DNA of 64,000 nucleotides from Chitinophagales bacterium (GTDB taxonomy: Bacteria; Bacteroidota; Bacteroidia; Chitinophagales; JADIYW01), in contig JAWKKV010000013.1 in the NCBI GenBank assembly GCA_041393015.1, forward strand, positions 3,255-67,254. The letters run 5' to 3'. The notes below the pieces were generated by a model, which was not told where the DNA came from, searched no databases, and was given only the letters and a program-made list of their open reading frames with translations. Both the position numbers and the translations under genes were made by a program. Below are positions 747 through 7,633 of the stretch, in pieces. How positions within the stretch are numbered: the first letter of the stretch is position 1; each line of letters begins with the position of its first letter.

Positions 747-1238
747 ATGACCAGAAAGGAGTATAATATATGTGTTTCAGAATTGTCTGATAGAGTGTAT
801 GGCTTTGCGCTTAAAAACTCAGGCAATACAAGTGATGCAAAAGATATTGTACAAGAAAGTTTTGAGCGTCTATGGGTGAAACATGATAAAATAGCTTTCG
901 ACAAGGCGAAATCTTATCTTTTTTCAACGGCTTATCATTGTATGATTGATAATCATCGCAAAATTAAAAGAATGGAGTATTCTAATAATATGATGGAAGA
1001 GATTGATCCGAAACAAAATGAGTTAGATAATAAGCAATGGTTACAAGAAGCACTTAACAAGATGAATGAACAAGAGAAATCATTGATATTGATGCGTGAC
1101 TATGAAGGCTATTCCTATGAAGAATTAGGTGATTTAACGGGCTTAAGTCTTTCTCAAGTAAAAGTATATCTCTTTAGAGCCCGAAAGAAGTTTAGAAACT
1201 GGTTGATTGAATTGAATAAAATTAGCAATGTGATATGA
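747..1238 (+). CDS. RNA polymerase sigma-70 family ECF sigma factor
   Basis: 163 aa. Region 2-like DIVQESFERLW and a region 4 HTH YSYEELGDLTGLSLSQVKVYLFRARKKF. There is a 4-bp ATGA overlap with the next gene. Confidence 0.85.
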   Translation: MTRKEYNICVSELSDRVYGFALKNSGNTSDAKDIVQESFERLWVKHDKIAFDKAKSYLFSTAYHCMIDNHRKIKRMEYSNNMMEEIDPKQNELDNKQWLQEALNKMNEQEKSLILMRDYEGYSYEELGDLTGLSLSQVKVYLFRARKKFRNWLIELNKISNVI

Positions 1239-2098
1239 GTGATGTAAAAATAAATGAGTTGAACTATGAGTTATACGCTTTAGACTTTGCAGAAGGAAAC
1301 CTTCAAGGGGAAGAATTGAAAGCGATGGAGACATTTTTATCTTGTCACCCTCAATTAAAAGAAGAGATTTTAGCCATTAGTTTAGTTGAATTGCCACATG
1401 ACCATGTAGTTTATGATGACAAAGCAAATTTGTATAAAAATGATAAGGCAATCGTTGGCTTGCCTTTATTAACTTCTTTAGCTATAGCTGCTTCCTTAAT
1501 TTTGCTTTTCGGTTTTGTTTGGATGAAAAATCAAAGTATAAATAATGGAGAGTTGGCAGACATGTCAATGGTAACTCTCCAAAAGATGAGCGATGTGAAT
1601 CAGTGGGAGGAAACATCAGAAAACACAGCTGACTTAAACACTATTTCAAACGTAGTCTCTAAAACAAATGAACCTAAAACTGATCATGAATTTGAAAATG
1701 ATTATCAGAAGAATAAAACAGGAAATGACTTCAACAATGGTGTGAAAGCAGTCAACACCAAAGGAATTGAATTAATGAGTGAAAAATTCACTAAAAATGC
1801 TAGTCAAAGTAATGAAGAGATTTCTTATGATGTTGCTCAAATAACACCTATAGAGTCTGTTAAAATTAATGCTGATGTTCAGGAACAACAATTAGAGCAT
1901 GTTGCTATAGCATCTAACAATACTGCTATAATTGAAACCACTATTGAAATTGGTGCTTTACAAACTAATATGTCTGATAAAAGACTTGCGATGTCTGAAA
2001 AGAAAGAAGAACGTAAAAAAGTATTTAAAGAAAATGTAAGGTATGTTTTTCAAAATGCATTATTACCAGAAGGGGTCGCATTAGCTATTAATAATTAA
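1235..2098 (+). CDS. putative anti-sigma factor / single-pass membrane protein
   Basis: 287 aa. Short N-terminal segment, one TM helix (LPLLTSLAIAASLILLFGFVW) and a low-complexity polar remainder. It is translationally coupled to the ECF sigma gene. The role is inferred from position only. Confidence 0.5.
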   Translation: MSDVKINELNYELYALDFAEGNLQGEELKAMETFLSCHPQLKEEILAISLVELPHDHVVYDDKANLYKNDKAIVGLPLLTSLAIAASLILLFGFVWMKNQSINNGELADMSMVTLQKMSDVNQWEETSENTADLNTISNVVSKTNEPKTDHEFENDYQKNKTGNDFNNGVKAVNTKGIELMSEKFTKNASQSNEEISYDVAQITPIESVKINADVQEQQLEHVAIASNNTAIIETTIEIGALQTNMSDKRLAMSEKKEERKKVFKENVRYVFQNALLPEGVALAINN

Positions 2099-2167
2099 AT
2101 CAAATTTTTGAAATTAATCATTAAGATCATTCAAACAAAAAATCTAATTCACTTATAAATTAAAGAA

Positions 2168-3046
2168 ATGAGACGAGTATTATTATTAAGCTTGTTGGGG
2201 CTAACTATGTTATTAGGGAAAGCGCAAACGAATACCAAAGTTCGAATTATAGAGTGTATTGTTGAAAATAATACGGATACCACGGTAATCATAAATCAAG
2301 GAGATACGTTGATACGCATACGTGAACCTTTTGATACAGATTCAGTAGTGATAACGACTAAAAGGTTTAATGTTAATGTTGGAGCTTCTGGGTTGAGTAT
2401 CGTTAAAAATGATTCAACTGCTGCTAGAAGGGTAGTTACACGATTCTTACTCATGGATATTGGTTTTGCCGGATTTCTTCAAAACGGCAGTTTTAATCTC
2501 ACCCCTGAAAATGAATTTTTAGATACTAAAAGTGGTAAGTCAAGAAATGTGAACTTGCAGCTTTTTACTCAAAGAGTTCGTTTTGCCAATAATCATATGA
2601 ATTTCTCTTATGGATTAATGTTTGAGTTTAATAAATATAGACTTGCGAACGATATTAAATTAATTCCTGGAGAAAGTCCCTTAGCGTGGGAAGCTTCAGA
2701 TACTGATTATAGAAAGAATAAATTGAAAGCAACGTATTTATATATGCCTTTAATGATTGGTGTTGAAAGTAATCCAGATAAGATAGCGAGATCATTTAGA
2801 CTTAGGGCTGGTGTGTATGGTGGAATTTTAGTTAATTCAAAACAAAAGCTAATAGGTAAAATAACTGATAGAGAGAAAATTAAGGATGATTTTAATCTAA
2901 CCAAGTTCCGATACGGTATTAGGGGTGAAATTGGCTATGGATTTGTTAACTTCTATGTACACTATGGTTTAAATGGATTGTTCAAAGACAATCAAGGTCC
3001 CGATTTGTCCCCCATAAATTTCGGATTTATGTTGCTACCTTTTTAA
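2168..3046 (+). CDS. outer membrane beta-barrel protein (porin/PorT-like family)
   Basis: 292 aa. Signal peptide MRRVLLLSLLGLTMLLGKAQ, alternating amphipathic strands and a C-terminal aromatic residue (..FGFMLLPF). Confidence 0.6.
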   Translation: MRRVLLLSLLGLTMLLGKAQTNTKVRIIECIVENNTDTTVIINQGDTLIRIREPFDTDSVVITTKRFNVNVGASGLSIVKNDSTAARRVVTRFLLMDIGFAGFLQNGSFNLTPENEFLDTKSGKSRNVNLQLFTQRVRFANNHMNFSYGLMFEFNKYRLANDIKLIPGESPLAWEASDTDYRKNKLKATYLYMPLMIGVESNPDKIARSFRLRAGVYGGILVNSKQKLIGKITDREKIKDDFNLTKFRYGIRGEIGYGFVNFYVHYGLNGLFKDNQGPDLSPINFGFMLLPF

Positions 3047-3542
3047 ATATTTAAATTGATGAGGAATTAATTTTACTAAAAAGGGTAGTGTGATGCCGAA
3101 TTACAATATAATGCTACCTAAAATAAAGAACACTTTTGTGTCACAAAATGAGTGTAAATTATTTTATTATTCTTTAAATATTCCTTTATTTAGAGTAAAT
3201 AACAATATTGTTTGCTATTTAAGTATGTCACAATTGAAATAAAATAGATACATTACTATACGAATTGTGAACGATATTTGATTAAGTAAAAGAAAAAAAA
3301 TAAGCGAAATTCTTGTGGATTGCTTATTTTAAAAAATAAAATGTTTTTTAACAGCAACTATATTATCATCGAATCGACATTTGCTTCTGCCAATACGGGT
3401 GGATTTTCAAATCAGATGAGAATGTTTTCTAATAAAATAGTAGATGTTATAACTATGCTTTTTGAAAGCTCAGTTAAAGACATTAAAAAAATCAATGAGA
3501 AGTTAACTAGTAAAGCTCAAGATGTAGTTACAATAATAAGCG

Positions 3543-3570
3543 AAAAGTCCACTTTTAAAGGTGGACTTTT
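3543..3570 (-). terminator. hairpin downstream of the small repeat-peptide gene
   Basis: 10-bp perfect stem AAAAGTCCAC / GTGGACTTTT with an 8-nt loop, 55 nt past the minus-strand stop at 3625-3627. On the minus strand a short T run follows it. Confidence 0.5.
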
Positions 3571-3624
3571 CAAGAGTCTACTAGCTACAAGAAATGAGAA
3601 GAGAAAAAATTTAAATAAAATCGA

Positions 3625-3822
3625 TTATTCGTTAGGATCAATTATTGAAATTCTTTCGTTAGGGTCAATAATTGAAATTCGCTCATTGGGATCAATGATT
3701 GAGATTCTTTCATTGGGATCAATGATTGAAATTCGCTCATTTGGATCAATAATTGAGATTTTTTGTGCGTTAGTGCTTAAAGTAAGACCAACTAAAACAA
3801 GTAATGTTGCTAAAATTTTCAT
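3625..3822 (-). CDS. small secreted protein: signal peptide plus five tandem nonapeptide repeats (K/R)ISIIDPNE
   Basis: 65 aa with an ATG start and a Sec-type signal peptide MKILATLLVLVGLTLSTNAQ. Five 27-nt repeats are identical at the protein level, and every nucleotide difference is synonymous in this frame. A hairpin lies downstream. Confidence 0.65.
   Translation of the reverse strand: MKILATLLVLVGLTLSTNAQKISIIDPNERISIIDPNERISIIDPNERISIIDPNERISIIDPNE
3628..3762 (-). repeat. 5 x 27-bp head-to-tail coding tandem repeat
   Basis: Copies at 3628-3654, 3655-3681, 3682-3708, 3709-3735 and 3736-3762, with no spacers. Confidence 0.95.
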
Positions 3823-3988
3823 GGCTATATAATTTTGTGTGACATGAATTTATTACCATTATTGGCTTTGTCAATTACAGTCAACTCTCTATTCTGACTA
3901 GGAAGTGTTTTTTGTTACATTATTTATTTATCTTATAACTATTTGATTAATAATATTTTGTATATATTTACTTGTATTATTGGTTTAT

Positions 3989-3996
3989 TATCTTTG
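3989..3996 (+). promoter_or_regulatory. Bacteroidota-type -7 box TAtcTTTG upstream of the 527-aa gene
   Basis: TATCTTTG matches the TAnnTTTG consensus of Bacteroidota sigma-A promoters, 23 nt before the GTG start at 4019. This is a motif match only. Confidence 0.4.
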
Positions 3997-4018
3997 TGAC
4001 AAAAATAACTCCTAAATT

Positions 4019-5602
4019 GTGAATACTCTAAGACAAATAATTAGTGTTGTATCGCGTAAAAGAATAAGTAAAGTTGAAATTTTTGATAAAACTTTACTCA
4101 GTACCGAAGACAGCAAGTTTACAGAATTGTATAATGCTATTGAGTCTGATCAAGTCAAAACAGACAGTGAAGCTGCACAGTTAATCTACAACGATCCCAA
4201 TAGTGTAAATTATAGAAAACTAAAATCGAGGTTTTTAAAACGACTATTAAATACCTTGTTCTTTTTAGATATCAATGGCAGTAATAAAGGAGATGATTAT
4301 CGCTACAATCATTACTCTTGTACGAAAGCTTTGATGCATGCAAAGTTGTTGAGATTTTTTGGTGCCTTTGAGTCTGCTTCAAAAATTATCAAGTTAAAAT
4401 ATAATGATGCAAAGAAATTTGCTTTTTATGATATTTTAGCTGAATACTCCTGGTTTTTAATACAGTATTACAGTCTTACTGGGAATGTGAAAGCTTTACA
4501 AGAAGAGCGAAGCAATTATTATGAATATAAGAAAGTGGCAGATAGTGAAGCACAAAGCCAGTTAATCTATTATGTTTCTATTGTTGAATTTGTAAAATCA
4601 ACTACTGTTAATCAACATGCTATTGATCAATTGAAGCAAGGTATTATAGAAATTGAAAAAGAAGTTAATAGTCATCCAACCGCTATTAATATTTTCAATC
4701 AACAAATGCTTAAATTCAATTACTACGAAACAATTTTTGATTGGGAAAGTCTTCTAATAGAGTGTGACAAGGCCTATAAAGATTTAAGTCATCACAAGTA
4801 TTATAATAAGACAAAAAACCATTTAATAACTTTCAAAAAACTAGTAGCTTGTCTAAACTTAAAAAGATTTAATGAAGGGGTAAGATTGTTTGAGAAAAGC
4901 AAAAATGCCTACGCAGAAGGATCTAATAACTGGTTTATGATTCAAAAGTATGGTGCATTGTTAGCCATACATTCAGATGACCGTGAATTAGCCTATAAAA
5001 TATATATTGATGCTAACAGTCAGCGTGTTGCTAAATTTATGAATAAGCCTACACAAGAGTTTTGGACAATTATAAGAGCTTACTTGCACTTCTTAATTCA
5101 AATACACAACGAAGCGCATTTAGTAGAGCATGAGGCCACTTTTAAGAAATTTAGAATTTTTAAATTTTTGAACGAGGTGCCAATTTACTCTAAAGATAAA
5201 TCAGGGAATAACATTGCTGTTTTAGTAATGGAATACATGTTTTTATTGATAGAGGGTAATTACGAAGCTATTATTTCAAAAATGGATTCAATAAAAGTTT
5301 ATAGAAGTCGATACTTAAAAGATGATATGTATAAAAGAGCCTATACATTCATAGGTATGCTTATTAAAGTTGAAAAAGAATCTTTTGTATATAAAGGAGT
5401 AAAGAAGTCTTGTGCTAAAGAGTACAACCTGCTTCAACATAATGATTCTGATCAAGAAGGAACAAGATCTAATTGGCCCATTCATGAATCAGAAATTATT
5501 CCTTATGAAAAGCTTTGGTATTATATTCTAAAGATATTAGAATATAACGATCTGCCTGACGAAATTAAGAACCGTTGCAAGAGTATTGCAGCAGGTGTTT
5601 AA
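4019..5602 (+). CDS. hypothetical 527-aa soluble, predicted all-helical (TPR-like?) protein
   Basis: Long ORF with a GTG start, no signal peptide and no TM helix. It is rich in Y/K/L/E with helical-repeat-like periodicity. I recognise no catalytic motif. Confidence 0.6.
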   Translation: MNTLRQIISVVSRKRISKVEIFDKTLLSTEDSKFTELYNAIESDQVKTDSEAAQLIYNDPNSVNYRKLKSRFLKRLLNTLFFLDINGSNKGDDYRYNHYSCTKALMHAKLLRFFGAFESASKIIKLKYNDAKKFAFYDILAEYSWFLIQYYSLTGNVKALQEERSNYYEYKKVADSEAQSQLIYYVSIVEFVKSTTVNQHAIDQLKQGIIEIEKEVNSHPTAINIFNQQMLKFNYYETIFDWESLLIECDKAYKDLSHHKYYNKTKNHLITFKKLVACLNLKRFNEGVRLFEKSKNAYAEGSNNWFMIQKYGALLAIHSDDRELAYKIYIDANSQRVAKFMNKPTQEFWTIIRAYLHFLIQIHNEAHLVEHEATFKKFRIFKFLNEVPIYSKDKSGNNIAVLVMEYMFLLIEGNYEAIISKMDSIKVYRSRYLKDDMYKRAYTFIGMLIKVEKESFVYKGVKKSCAKEYNLLQHNDSDQEGTRSNWPIHESEIIPYEKLWYYILKILEYNDLPDEIKNRCKSIAAGV

Positions 5603-5700
5603 TTTTACCATGTCACAAATTACACAAAAACGTTATTGAAGTATAGGGGTAATGGATTACCTTTAAATTGTAGGAATCTTTTTATGTAGTTAAATAAAAA

Positions 5701-5726
5701 AAGGTTCTCCATTTCTGAAGAACCTT
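5701..5726 (-). terminator. intrinsic-terminator-like hairpin whose U-tract fits the minus strand
   Basis: Stem AAGGTTCT / AGAACCTT (8 bp) with a 10-nt loop. An A7 run immediately precedes it on the plus strand, which is T7 after the hairpin on the minus strand. No T run follows it on the plus strand. Confidence 0.45.
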
Positions 5727-6372
5727 GCTAGACCCATATGATCTAGAAACATAAAAACCCTGATCCAAATATACTACTTCCTTTATTATATGCAAAATTA
5801 AAAATGAGAAAATCAAAGAAATTTGTGATTTTAAGCACCAATTTATGTGGTATTATACCTTCTGGTATTTTAATTTATAAGCAGTAGATATAATTAATAG
5901 TTTTGTAAATCAATTAGTTAGGTAAGTATTTTGTAGCTGATTTATAAATAAAAAACCTCGATAAAAAAAATAAAAAAAATCTTCAAAAAAAACAGAAAAA
6001 ATGTTTTTTGAGCTCATTTATGGACAATAATTCATATTGTTCACCACTTTAAAAGACATATAACAGAGACTAGAATTTACATAAAAATGGATTTGACGAG
6101 GCTTGATTTGAAAATAAATGGTGCTAGGTCACTAATTTTTTCTTTTATAAAGATAAGTTCGGAGGCTTATTTTGACGCAAATTATTCAAATTAGTCTTCA
6201 TTAATATTTTGAGTAAATAATCTTTTTGTAAAAATATAATTGAGTAAAAGCACTTTTAATCACTCAATTTATAGGGTAAAAAAGTCGAATTTTAGTCACA
6301 AATAGAAAGTTTTAAGTAAGTAATGAGATAAGTACTTTAAAAAAATAGATACATTCAATCGATAAAAAAAAA

Positions 6373-6398
6373 GCGATAACAAAATAATTTGTTATCGC
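6373..6398 (-). terminator. intrinsic terminator of the PDZ gene (possibly bidirectional)
   Basis: Stem GCGATAAC / GTTATCGC (8 bp). On the plus strand it is flanked by A9 upstream and CTTTT downstream. It lies 33 nt past the minus-strand stop at 6431. Confidence 0.7.
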
Positions 6399-6430
6399 CT
6401 TTTGGGATAGTATCTATATAAAAGGAATAC

Positions 6431-7633
6431 TTAATCTTCTCCTTTCCAATTGAAATCTGTAATTGAATTATTGAATTCGAATAGTTTACCTTTTGTCGTT
6501 TTAAGTTTACCGTATCTATAATATGTAATTTGAATTTCGCTACCTAATTCTTGTTCTTCAAGCGCCTTATGTAGTGATTGTACATCTTCAATGTCTATAG
6601 TATTAAGTTTAACTATTACATCGTTTAATTTTAAGCCCATTTCTTTGGCAGTCGTTGCGTCTAAAACTTTAGTAATTAAAACACCTTTGCCACCTTTTAT
6701 TTTTAGGTCAGAAACCATTTCTGCATCTAAATCTTCAATATACACACCAAGCTTAGGTCTTGATCTTGTCATATATGCTGTATAAGATCTTTGATGATGT
6801 TTACACTCTTCTTTTGCATTTTCACAGCATGCCGGAGCATTAAGCTTAAACGACTGTCCAATATCGTATTGACTCTCAGCTTTACATTTTAAGGTTGCTT
6901 CTAAAACATTGATTTCACCAGCTCTATTTACTTTTATAGTGATTTTTTCATTAATATTTCTTGCATGTAATTCATCCACCAAATCATCTAATTGATTGAT
7001 CTCATTTCCGTTTATTTCAGTAATGATGTCTTCCTTTTCAATACCTGCAACAGCGGCTGCGCTATTTTCAATTACACTTATCACTCTAACACCTTTGGTG
7101 CTGGTACCATCTTCATCTAAAATTACGCCAAGAAATGGGCGTTTGTGATCTAACAATTGAATCTCATCTATTTCTTCTAAATCATTAATGTTGATCCAAT
7201 TTCCTTCATCATCTTCTTGATTGATCCAAATTAAATTGTCAGCATTAGAAGAGCCTTGTAACATAAGCATTTTGATAAGTGAATCACTGCTAAACTCTCC
7301 AATCGAATTCATTATTTCATTCACTAAACTATCTGAATTTAGCTTATGGCTTTTATCTAATTCCTTGATGGTTGTTTTTTCTTCAATATGATCACCATTT
7401 TTAATTTTAGTTGTAATTACAACTTTACCATCATCGGTATTGGTGCTAATTTTTTTCTGAATTACTTTAACATCATTTTGCCCGCTATCACTTATAGATT
7501 GAGTGATTTCTTCTTTTACAACAATAATTTGATGTTCATTGGTGACTTGTGCCATTGATAGGTTGGCAGCAGTGTACATAACTAGTGTCGAGAGTAAAAG
7601 TAATTTCATATCATTATAGATTGTGTCATCCAA
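6431..7633 (-). CDS. secreted protein with two PDZ domains
   Basis: 400 aa with an N-terminal hydrophobic signal. Two PDZ-like segments (GVRVISVIENSAAAVAGIEKEDIITEINGNEI and GVLITKVLDATTAKEMGLKLNDVIVKLNTIDI). Confidence 0.65.
   Translation of the reverse strand: MDDTIYNDMKLLLLSTLVMYTAANLSMAQVTNEHQIIVVKEEITQSISDSGQNDVKVIQKKISTNTDDGKVVITTKIKNGDHIEEKTTIKELDKSHKLNSDSLVNEIMNSIGEFSSDSLIKMLMLQGSSNADNLIWINQEDDEGNWININDLEEIDEIQLLDHKRPFLGVILDEDGTSTKGVRVISVIENSAAAVAGIEKEDIITEINGNEINQLDDLVDELHARNINEKITIKVNRAGEINVLEATLKCKAESQYDIGQSFKLNAPACCENAKEECKHHQRSYTAYMTRSRPKLGVYIEDLDAEMVSDLKIKGGKGVLITKVLDATTAKEMGLKLNDVIVKLNTIDIEDVQSLHKALEEQELGSEIQITYYRYGKLKTTKGKLFEFNNSITDFNWKGED

Follow-up and report, generated by a model that had tools for sequence, protein, structure and literature searches.

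Quorum sensing by means of peptides and intracellular receptors is seen as a trait of the monoderm Firmicutes, and no such system is established in Bacteroidota. The question whether diderm bacteria of this phylum might also rely on such signals is raised by a gene pair in a stretch of 64,000 nucleotides (nt) from a Chitinophagales bacterium (hereafter the window, i.e., the whole stretch at its full length). Here, a gene for a pro-peptide of 65 amino acids (3625..3822, minus strand) and a gene for a cytoplasmic protein of 527 amino acids with a GTG start codon (4019..5602, plus strand) diverge across a spacer of 196 base pairs (bp; 3823-4018). A first-pass annotation made from the sequence alone had described this arrangement, which was found exactly as given, and had likened it to the RRNPP systems of Firmicutes. 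The chances are about even that the two genes form a co-inherited module of a peptide ligand and a tetratricopeptide repeat (TPR) receptor or regulator, which would work like an RRNPP or Rgg/SHP quorum-sensing pair.

The minus-strand reading frame consists of MKILATLLVLVGLTLSTNAQ, a lysine, four copies of ISIIDPNER and a final ISIIDPNE. It thus codes for a Sec-type signal peptide (residues 1-20, nt 3763-3822, predicted cleavage TNA|QK), Lys21 and five tandem units of nine residues (nt 3628-3759), the last of which lacks the arginine, followed by the stop codon at 3625-3627. The n-, h- and c-regions of a signal peptidase I substrate are all present at the N-terminus, and the glutamine following the predicted cut is common at this position in Bacteroidota. 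Tandem Repeats Finder describes the repeat as 5.1 copies with a period of 27 (3628-3764), having 81% identity at the DNA level as opposed to 100% at the peptide level, and a codon-by-codon comparison shows that the five copies vary at seven nucleotide sites. As all seven of these differences are synonymous, the repeat is translated and kept as a peptide and is not a chance open reading frame (ORF). The predicted mature peptide of eight to nine residues has a mass of about 0.9-1.06 kDa. A search for homologues of the 65-residue peptide gave no match at E ≤ 10, the query being too short and repetitive for the size of the database.

With respect to the pairing of the two genes, contigs were fetched for eight proteins of 55-86% identity. 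In all eight loci of the window clade, a minus-strand gene coding for a signal peptide and tandem units lies divergently some 190-220 bp upstream, one of these genes being cut by the end of its contig. The orthologous precursors carry five copies of ISIVDPNE[RK] in locus L001 (86% identity of the large protein to that of the window), a single VGVVDPQGDR in L088 (67%), five copies of LGTVDPDER in L002 (59%), at least two of VGIIDPDER in L089 (59%, where the contig end cuts the gene), and five copies each of IGIPDIEGGR in L091 (58%), GIGIIDPFESPxR in L090 (57%) and ITIGDIEGGK in L003 (55%). Since the genes beyond the peptide gene vary, with an outer membrane protein (OMP) barrel in the window and a ribulose-phosphate epimerase or YceG elsewhere, and since the PDZ-domain gene next to the window pair is absent from two loci, only the gene pair itself is constant.

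In some 35 loci that are more distant, the two genes are likewise paired divergently, with other forms of the peptide. When one genome of each species was scanned with a 16-sequence alignment, 357 relatives of the large protein were returned, and 79 loci were kept, nearly all of which are labelled as Chitinophagales, Saprospiraceae, Lewinellaceae or unclassified Bacteroidota metagenome-assembled genomes. Drawn from these 79 loci at 29-36% identity is a monophyletic group of about 30 loci (clade A, 30-36% identity), in every one of which a divergent ORF of 20-30 codons lies about 390-410 nt upstream of the large gene and ends exactly in IV[IV][IV]DxDEL and the stop codon, e.g., MKKRIHSKIPVGVIVIIDNDEL. 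No second occurrence of this motif was found in any of the six frames of the clade-A loci of 8-13 kb, and the clade-A peptides all lack a Sec-type signal peptide. When 20 distinct loci are compared, IVIIDxDEL shows no change at the first and second positions of its codons apart from the alternation of isoleucine and valine and the position x. In turn, the third positions vary freely, the leucine is encoded by TTR or CTN and the stop codon is TAA, TAG or TGA (20 distinct DNA versions); on this sequence evidence, the peptide is clearly under purifying selection at the codon level. IVIIDPDEL of locus L009 and ISIIDPNER of the window are identical at six of nine positions, and therefore the repeat unit of the window is homologous to the C-terminal nonamer of clade A. 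In another clade, named after its large protein of 497 residues, a short hydrophobic N-terminus is followed by three to seven units of the IIDPTG type (IIIDPTGN, VIDPTAGKG) separated by spacers of variable length, and locus L046 contains two small ORFs ending in IITDDGAGRNDSE.

The association also holds in the reverse direction. When metagenome contigs were searched with the invariant element of 30 nt located after the stop codon of the clade-A peptide, the peptide ORF was present in all 14 matches, and a divergent TPR homologue in all ten contigs with enough room, the other four ending too early; the corresponding element of the window clade gave no match in metagenome contigs. In a neighbour-joining tree of the large proteins, the type of peptide tracks the clade and the variable residue x tracks the sub-clades, as expected for cognate pairs. 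Conservation of the neighbourhood, which the first-pass annotation had named as a check, is thus borne out by close, distant and reciprocal comparisons alike, and the pairing of the peptide gene and the TPR gene is real and old.

The GTG start of the large gene coincides with residue 1 of all homologues. Its product has an isoelectric point (pI) of 8.9 and, as had been noted from its sequence, neither a signal peptide nor a transmembrane segment, the highest Kyte-Doolittle value in any 19-residue window being 1.3. Clustered at 50% identity, the relatives returned by a profile search form 3,836 clusters with E ≤ 1e-3, of which 1,966 reach E ≤ 1e-30, and the best 150 listed relatives are all about 500 residues long and match over their full length. 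However large the family may be, each relative is named 'hypothetical protein' by its source, and Pfam and NCBIfam scans of the window protein and 62 relatives revealed no family, no enzyme match and no helix-turn-helix (HTH) match. An identity as SusD/RagB was rejected, as there is no signal peptide, no SusD/RagB Pfam match and no SusC neighbour.

An AlphaFold2 model based on a 62-sequence alignment is all-helical (predicted local distance difference test, pLDDT, 87.6; predicted template modelling score 0.82), with a basic N-terminal domain comprising residues 1-95 and a superhelix spanning residues 93-520 approximately, in line with the helical-repeat character that had been suspected from the composition. 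The best fold matches returned by Foldseek from the PDB are LGN/Pins, AimR (5zw6, 6jg8, 6hp3), NprR (5dbk, 4gpk) and PEX5, all of them modest (E between 6e-3 and 6e-2, template modelling (TM) scores of 0.3-0.5). As modelled, the fold is a TPR-like superhelix resembling those that bind peptides, and the 62-sequence profile matches consensus TPR proteins at profile positions 250-335 (E = 8e-4). The most conserved part of the protein is formed by the first 90 or so residues (RKRISK.EIFDK ... YRKLKSRFLKRLLNTLFFLD), including a very basic helix, YRKLKSRFLKRLLNTLFF, with a pI of 11. W349, R431, R440, K453 and W500 are further conserved residues. Modelled alone, this domain reaches a pLDDT of 68, and its best fold match is region 4 of sigma factors (3vep, 3vfz; TM-score 0.6, root mean square deviation 2.5-2.9 Å over 57-64 columns, E 3.6-5.5); a comparison by hhalign with the extracytoplasmic function (ECF) sigma factor encoded in the window detected no similarity.

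The divergent control region (3823..4018) contains a TTGTGAC box on the plus strand (3994-4000), which lies 25 nt before the GTG start and overlaps a -7 box of the Bacteroidetes type (TATCTTTG), as well as a variant box, TTTTGTGTGACA, at 3833-3844 and conserved blocks containing TTGAC and ACAG at about 3866-3897. Of 92 loci, 67 have such a plus-strand TTGTGAC box upstream of the large gene, at a distance that is fixed but specific to the clade, compared with a background of 0.083 per kb. The distance amounts to -20 to -30 in most loci of the window clade, -79 to -104 in clade A and about -97 in the 497-residue clade, and in 28 of 51 other loci a box lies at -66 to -140. In most clades, the TTGTGAC / TTTGTGACA box is enriched some 100-fold at fixed sites ahead of the TPR-family gene. 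Peptide-bearing loci contain it two to four times, the extra copies in these clades lying around -211 to -225 and -300 to -320, and an inverted copy lies some 300-360 nt upstream in 13 Saprospiraceae loci. In the 64 kb of the window, five of the eight TTGTGAC sites fall within 3140-6301 (3140, 3227, 3994, 5612 and 6295), and in five of the eight window-clade loci (the window itself, L001, L003, L088 and L091) a box directly follows the stop codon of the TPR gene. These boxes may be operators or a special type of promoter.

The two genes had also been described as sitting alone in non-coding DNA. The gaps to the next genes are indeed 578 bp (3047-3624) and 828 bp (5603-6430) long; however, these flanks hold strongly conserved non-coding elements. 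One of them is the 3' untranslated region (3'UTR) of the peptide transcript (3535..3616, minus strand; TTTTTTCTCTTCTCATTTCTTGTAGCTAGTAGACTCTTGAAAAG...), an almost invariant block with a terminator-like hairpin at 3541-3572. The 75 nt after the peptide stop codon are nearly invariant in the window, L001, L002 and L003 despite an identity of only 55-86% of the neighbouring protein; the core of the block recurs in the frame translations of L088 and L090, and it is present as a single copy in the window. Clade A carries a different invariant block of 33 nt (CAGTTGGTTTGTTTCATAAATTAGGTTCACGA) before a covarying terminator (e.g., L014, about 5470-5545), and the 497-residue clade has an invariant 3'UTR block of its own, so that in each clade 33-75 nt are more conserved than the surrounding coding regions. 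A long antisense ORF (3320-3832, plus strand, 170 codons) spans the peptide gene and has a counterpart of 181 codons in L090 (109-654, plus strand), where the gene caller chose it over the peptide gene. This ORF is an artefact that arises from the repeat and the conserved 3'UTR, and the case shows how such peptide genes become mis-annotated.

On the other side of the pair and convergent with the large gene lies a gene resembling that of a small RNA (sRNA; 5696..5797, minus strand), with a canonical promoter of the Bacteroidetes type (-33 element TTTG at 5793-5796, -7 element TATATTTG at 5766-5773) and an invariant transcribed part of about 65 nt (CAGGGTTTTTATGTTTCTAGATCATATGGGTCTAGCAAGGTTCTTC...) that runs from about 5762 down to 5696 and includes a terminator hairpin (5701-5726). 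It is found in seven of the eight window-clade loci with an invariant transcript, a promoter spacer that varies and a terminator that shows one compensatory pair; the gene is possibly associated with the locus. Pairing of this sRNA-like transcript with the 3'UTR of the peptide transcript was rejected, the duplex energy of -24.3 kcal/mol being matched by a shuffle mean of -24.4. Rfam returned no match for the whole window, the intergenic regions, the 3'UTR blocks or the sRNA-like gene.

As for the remaining surroundings, the region from 3047 to 6430 has a G + C content of 27.7% and the large gene one of 30.3%, compared with 34.9% for the whole window. Upstream of the pair (747-3046, plus strand), genes for the ECF sigma factor (163 residues), an overlapping putative anti-sigma factor (287 residues, one transmembrane segment) and an OMP_b-brl_2 barrel (292 residues) likely form one operon, which was rejected as part of the module because it is not conserved beside the pair in relatives. 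Beyond the large gene, the PDZ-domain gene (6431-7633, minus strand) codes for a protein of 400 residues with an N-terminal hydrophobic segment and two PDZ domains, which resembles only the C-terminal half of HtrA. Being devoid of a protease domain and missing from two of the eight close loci, it was likewise dismissed as a processing partner, and its presence in the other six is a matter of synteny only.

How the proposed module might work can be sketched as follows. The small gene would encode the precursor of a short peptide with the core hydrophobic-x-hydrophobic-hydrophobic-Asp-x-x-Glu, represented by ISIIDPNE(R) in the window and IVIIDxDEL in the sister clade. In the lineage of the window, the precursor would be exported by Sec and probably cut after the signal peptide and after each arginine or lysine that ends a unit, which would give five copies of an acidic-hydrophobic peptide of eight to nine residues per translation. 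After a presumed passage across the outer membrane and re-uptake, the peptide would probably be bound by the 527-residue cytoplasmic protein in its TPR superhelix, perhaps via the free C-terminal carboxylate and the acidic residues, whereupon the small basic N-terminal domain would probably change transcription at promoters with a TTGTGAC box, including its own.

This scheme resembles several known systems, each in part. Like the RRNPP systems of Firmicutes and their phages (Rap/Phr, NprR/NprX, PlcR/PapR, PrgX, AimR/AimP), the locus combines a cytoplasmic TPR-type protein with an exported pro-peptide encoded by a small adjoining gene; the active part, here as predicted, is a short C-terminal or internal oligopeptide, the peptide variants track the receptor lineages, and the best structural matches of the large protein include AimR and NprR. 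Some Phr precursors also carry several copies of their peptide. Unlike these systems, the window family shows no detectable sequence homology to RRNPP proteins, no HTH of the XRE type was found in it, its small, basic and helical N-terminal domain apparently being a different one, the protein is larger (about 500-540 residues), its gene is single-copy with conserved synteny, and the host is a diderm member of the Bacteroidota. Of the Rgg/SHP and ComR/XIP pairs of streptococci, in turn, the clade-A peptides are reminiscent in having 20-25 residues, with a hydrophobic stretch between a basic N-terminus and a conserved octa- or nonamer at the C-terminus, and in being devoid of a Sec signal and transcribed divergently from the receptor gene, a layout that is strikingly similar to that of SHP (cf. 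MKK...DIIIIVGG). However, the 527-residue family has no Rgg-family match (HTH_XRE plus the Rgg C-terminal repeat domain), and the window precursor has a Sec signal and five copies, both of which SHP precursors lack.

The tandem arrangement itself has a parallel in eukaryotic poly-pheromone precursors such as the yeast alpha-factor, processed by Kex2 and Kex1, and the fungal dikaritins, which also combine a signal peptide with identical tandem units ending in arginine or lysine. That the last unit of the window precursor lacks the basic residue is as expected if a basic-residue endopeptidase followed by a carboxypeptidase were to release identical peptides. However, these precursors are eukaryotic and no cognate protease was identified at the window locus; the analogy is one of architecture only. 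Finally, the placement of ...DxDEL at the very C-terminus of a peptide encoded beside a TPR protein in about 30 loci recalls the TPR carboxylate clamp (Hop/CHIP with EEVD, PEX5 with PTS1), PEX5 being among the fold matches, whereas the known clamps mediate intracellular contacts between proteins in eukaryotes. The interpretation that had been suggested is thus supported in part, by the conserved pairing and the TPR-like fold, and membership of the module in the RRNPP or Rgg/SHP systems is not supported in view of the lack of sequence homology and of a recognised XRE-type HTH and the difference in phylum and envelope. A full-text literature search found no RRNPP system in Bacteroidota or Bacteroidetes, and a large survey of RRNPP systems covered Firmicutes only (PMC10075063). 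The combination of a peptide gene with a cytoplasmic TPR receptor has probably evolved independently of RRNPP. A wider and accordingly more tentative reading, which falls somewhat short of an even chance, holds that this is the first system in a diderm phylum to combine a peptide pheromone with a cytoplasmic receptor for communication. The TPR regulators of Chitinophagales, a family of at least 2,000 clusters when grouped at 50% identity, would then sense a cognate acidic-hydrophobic peptide of eight to nine residues encoded next door, independently evolved from the RRNPP systems of Firmicutes and in some lineages released from a Sec-exported poly-pheromone of five to seven copies.

A number of observations weigh against a signal/receptor function. 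About 50 loci of the Saprospiraceae clade, i.e., about half of the family, and a few others show no adjacent peptide gene, and beside the Saprospiraceae-clade homologues none was found by shared C-terminal k-mers, ORF listing or alignment of the upstream DNA. What the search did yield is limited to promoter-like TTTGTGAC boxes, a gene for DUF2795 and a short divergent stretch that terminates in a hairpin and contains no conserved ORF, and the neighbours are housekeeping genes (DUF2795, cytidylate kinase); in these genomes, either the peptide gene sits elsewhere or the protein works without one. A called divergent ORF of 48 codons in a locus of a peptide-less clade (L007, 7659-7805, minus strand) codes for a hydrophobic N-terminus and an acidic tail (MQLIVLILLYLGIVSSPDQVDNSIIQDNQEQIESVMNDGIVINTIVSE) and has no repeats. 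With respect to the large protein, a search of the 62-sequence profile against all PDB chain sequences matched designed and consensus TPRs only and no RRNPP protein at E ≤ 10. While the structure prediction did yield the superhelix looked for by the first-pass annotation, the N-terminal HTH, which in RRNPP receptors is of the XRE type or has the Rap three-helix bundle in its place, is, in view of the sigma region 4 match and its lack of Pfam and hhalign support, only hinted at by the model and not established as a DNA-binding domain. In addition, the TPR-protein gene occurs in a single copy, is syntenic and seems to be inherited vertically, which sets it apart from many RRNPP systems, a signal in a diderm host would need to cross the outer membrane twice, and the invariance of the 3'UTR points to an additional or alternative function of the peptide transcript at the RNA level.

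Some of these observations might be accommodated by other explanations. If the TPR protein, or a transcription system marked by the TTGTGAC boxes, merely controlled the peptide gene, the exported peptide could have another job outside the cell or in the periplasm, be it antimicrobial, adhesive, metal-binding or as a protease decoy, and would not be sensed at all. The divergent promoters with their shared boxes, the Sec signal, which directs the peptide to the periplasm in a diderm cell, and the lack of a transporter or Opp-type gene in the conserved neighbourhood would all agree with such a regulator and its target. However, the C-terminal nonamer is the sole conserved part of the peptide, is found beside the same TPR protein down to 30% identity and co-varies with the sub-clades, and thus looks like a cognate ligand, and the variable-length spacers between the units of the 497-residue clade fit a processed precursor and not a structural repeat protein; this explanation is therefore considered unlikely, albeit the least so of the alternatives. 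It is improbable that the peptide acts, at any rate in the clade that lacks a Sec signal, as an intracellular partner of the TPR protein, i.e., as a cytoplasmic regulatory subunit or anti-activator with no cell-to-cell signalling, even though its motif always occupies the extreme C-terminus, as in the recognition by TPR carboxylate-clamp domains of C-terminal partner motifs such as EEVD or PTS1. The clear Sec signals in all eight window-clade loci and the multi-copy units ending in arginine or lysine only make sense for an exported and processed product, and even the clade-A peptides, which lack a Sec-type signal, resemble the exported SHP pheromones in their basic N-terminus and subsequent hydrophobic stretch.

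A function of the small transcript mainly as RNA, either as a dual-function sRNA or with its Ile/Val-rich ORF serving as a translational sensor before a terminator, the peptide mattering only in cis, is suggested by the clade-specific invariant blocks of 33-75 nt that directly precede the covarying terminator and by the four consecutive Ile/Val codons, which recall the leader peptides of branched-chain amino acid operons. Yet no gene in the same orientation follows, the neighbours beyond the terminator vary in identity and strand and the next gene in the window is convergent. Moreover, the Asp, Asp/Asn, Glu and Leu residues are as strictly conserved as the Ile/Val run, the Sec-exported form with its five copies cannot be a leader peptide, no Rfam family was recognised and the predicted pairing with the sRNA-like gene does no better than shuffled sequences, all of which makes a role mainly as RNA quite improbable. 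Very improbable, finally, is a multi-core precursor of a ribosomally synthesised and post-translationally modified peptide (RiPP) for which the large protein would be a processing or scaffold factor. The combination of a signal peptide with repeated cores parted by basic residues formally resembles the multi-core precursors of fungal dikaritins and of the cyanobactin type; however, no gene for a modifying enzyme, protease or transporter is conserved beside the pair, the neighbours differing between loci (YceG, ribulose-phosphate epimerase, OMP barrel, DUF1501, cytidylate kinase), the PDZ-domain gene is missing where stated above, and the large protein has no enzyme-family match and is cytoplasmic whereas the precursor is exported.

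Its conservation therefore makes the pair a strong candidate for cell signalling by peptides in a phylum in which none is known. The module is widespread in Chitinophagales and their relatives, as reflected by the 357 relatives found in the scan of species genomes and by some 3,800 clusters of proteins, and the lineage-specific nonamers constitute a ready set of predicted ligands that makes the question directly testable. If true, the proposed function would provide a bacterial example of a poly-peptide precursor made up of identical, basic-ended tandem units, and would assign a function to a large and hitherto unnamed protein family. Whether peptide signals and intracellular receptors are in use among the diderm Bacteroidota thereby becomes a question that direct tests can address.

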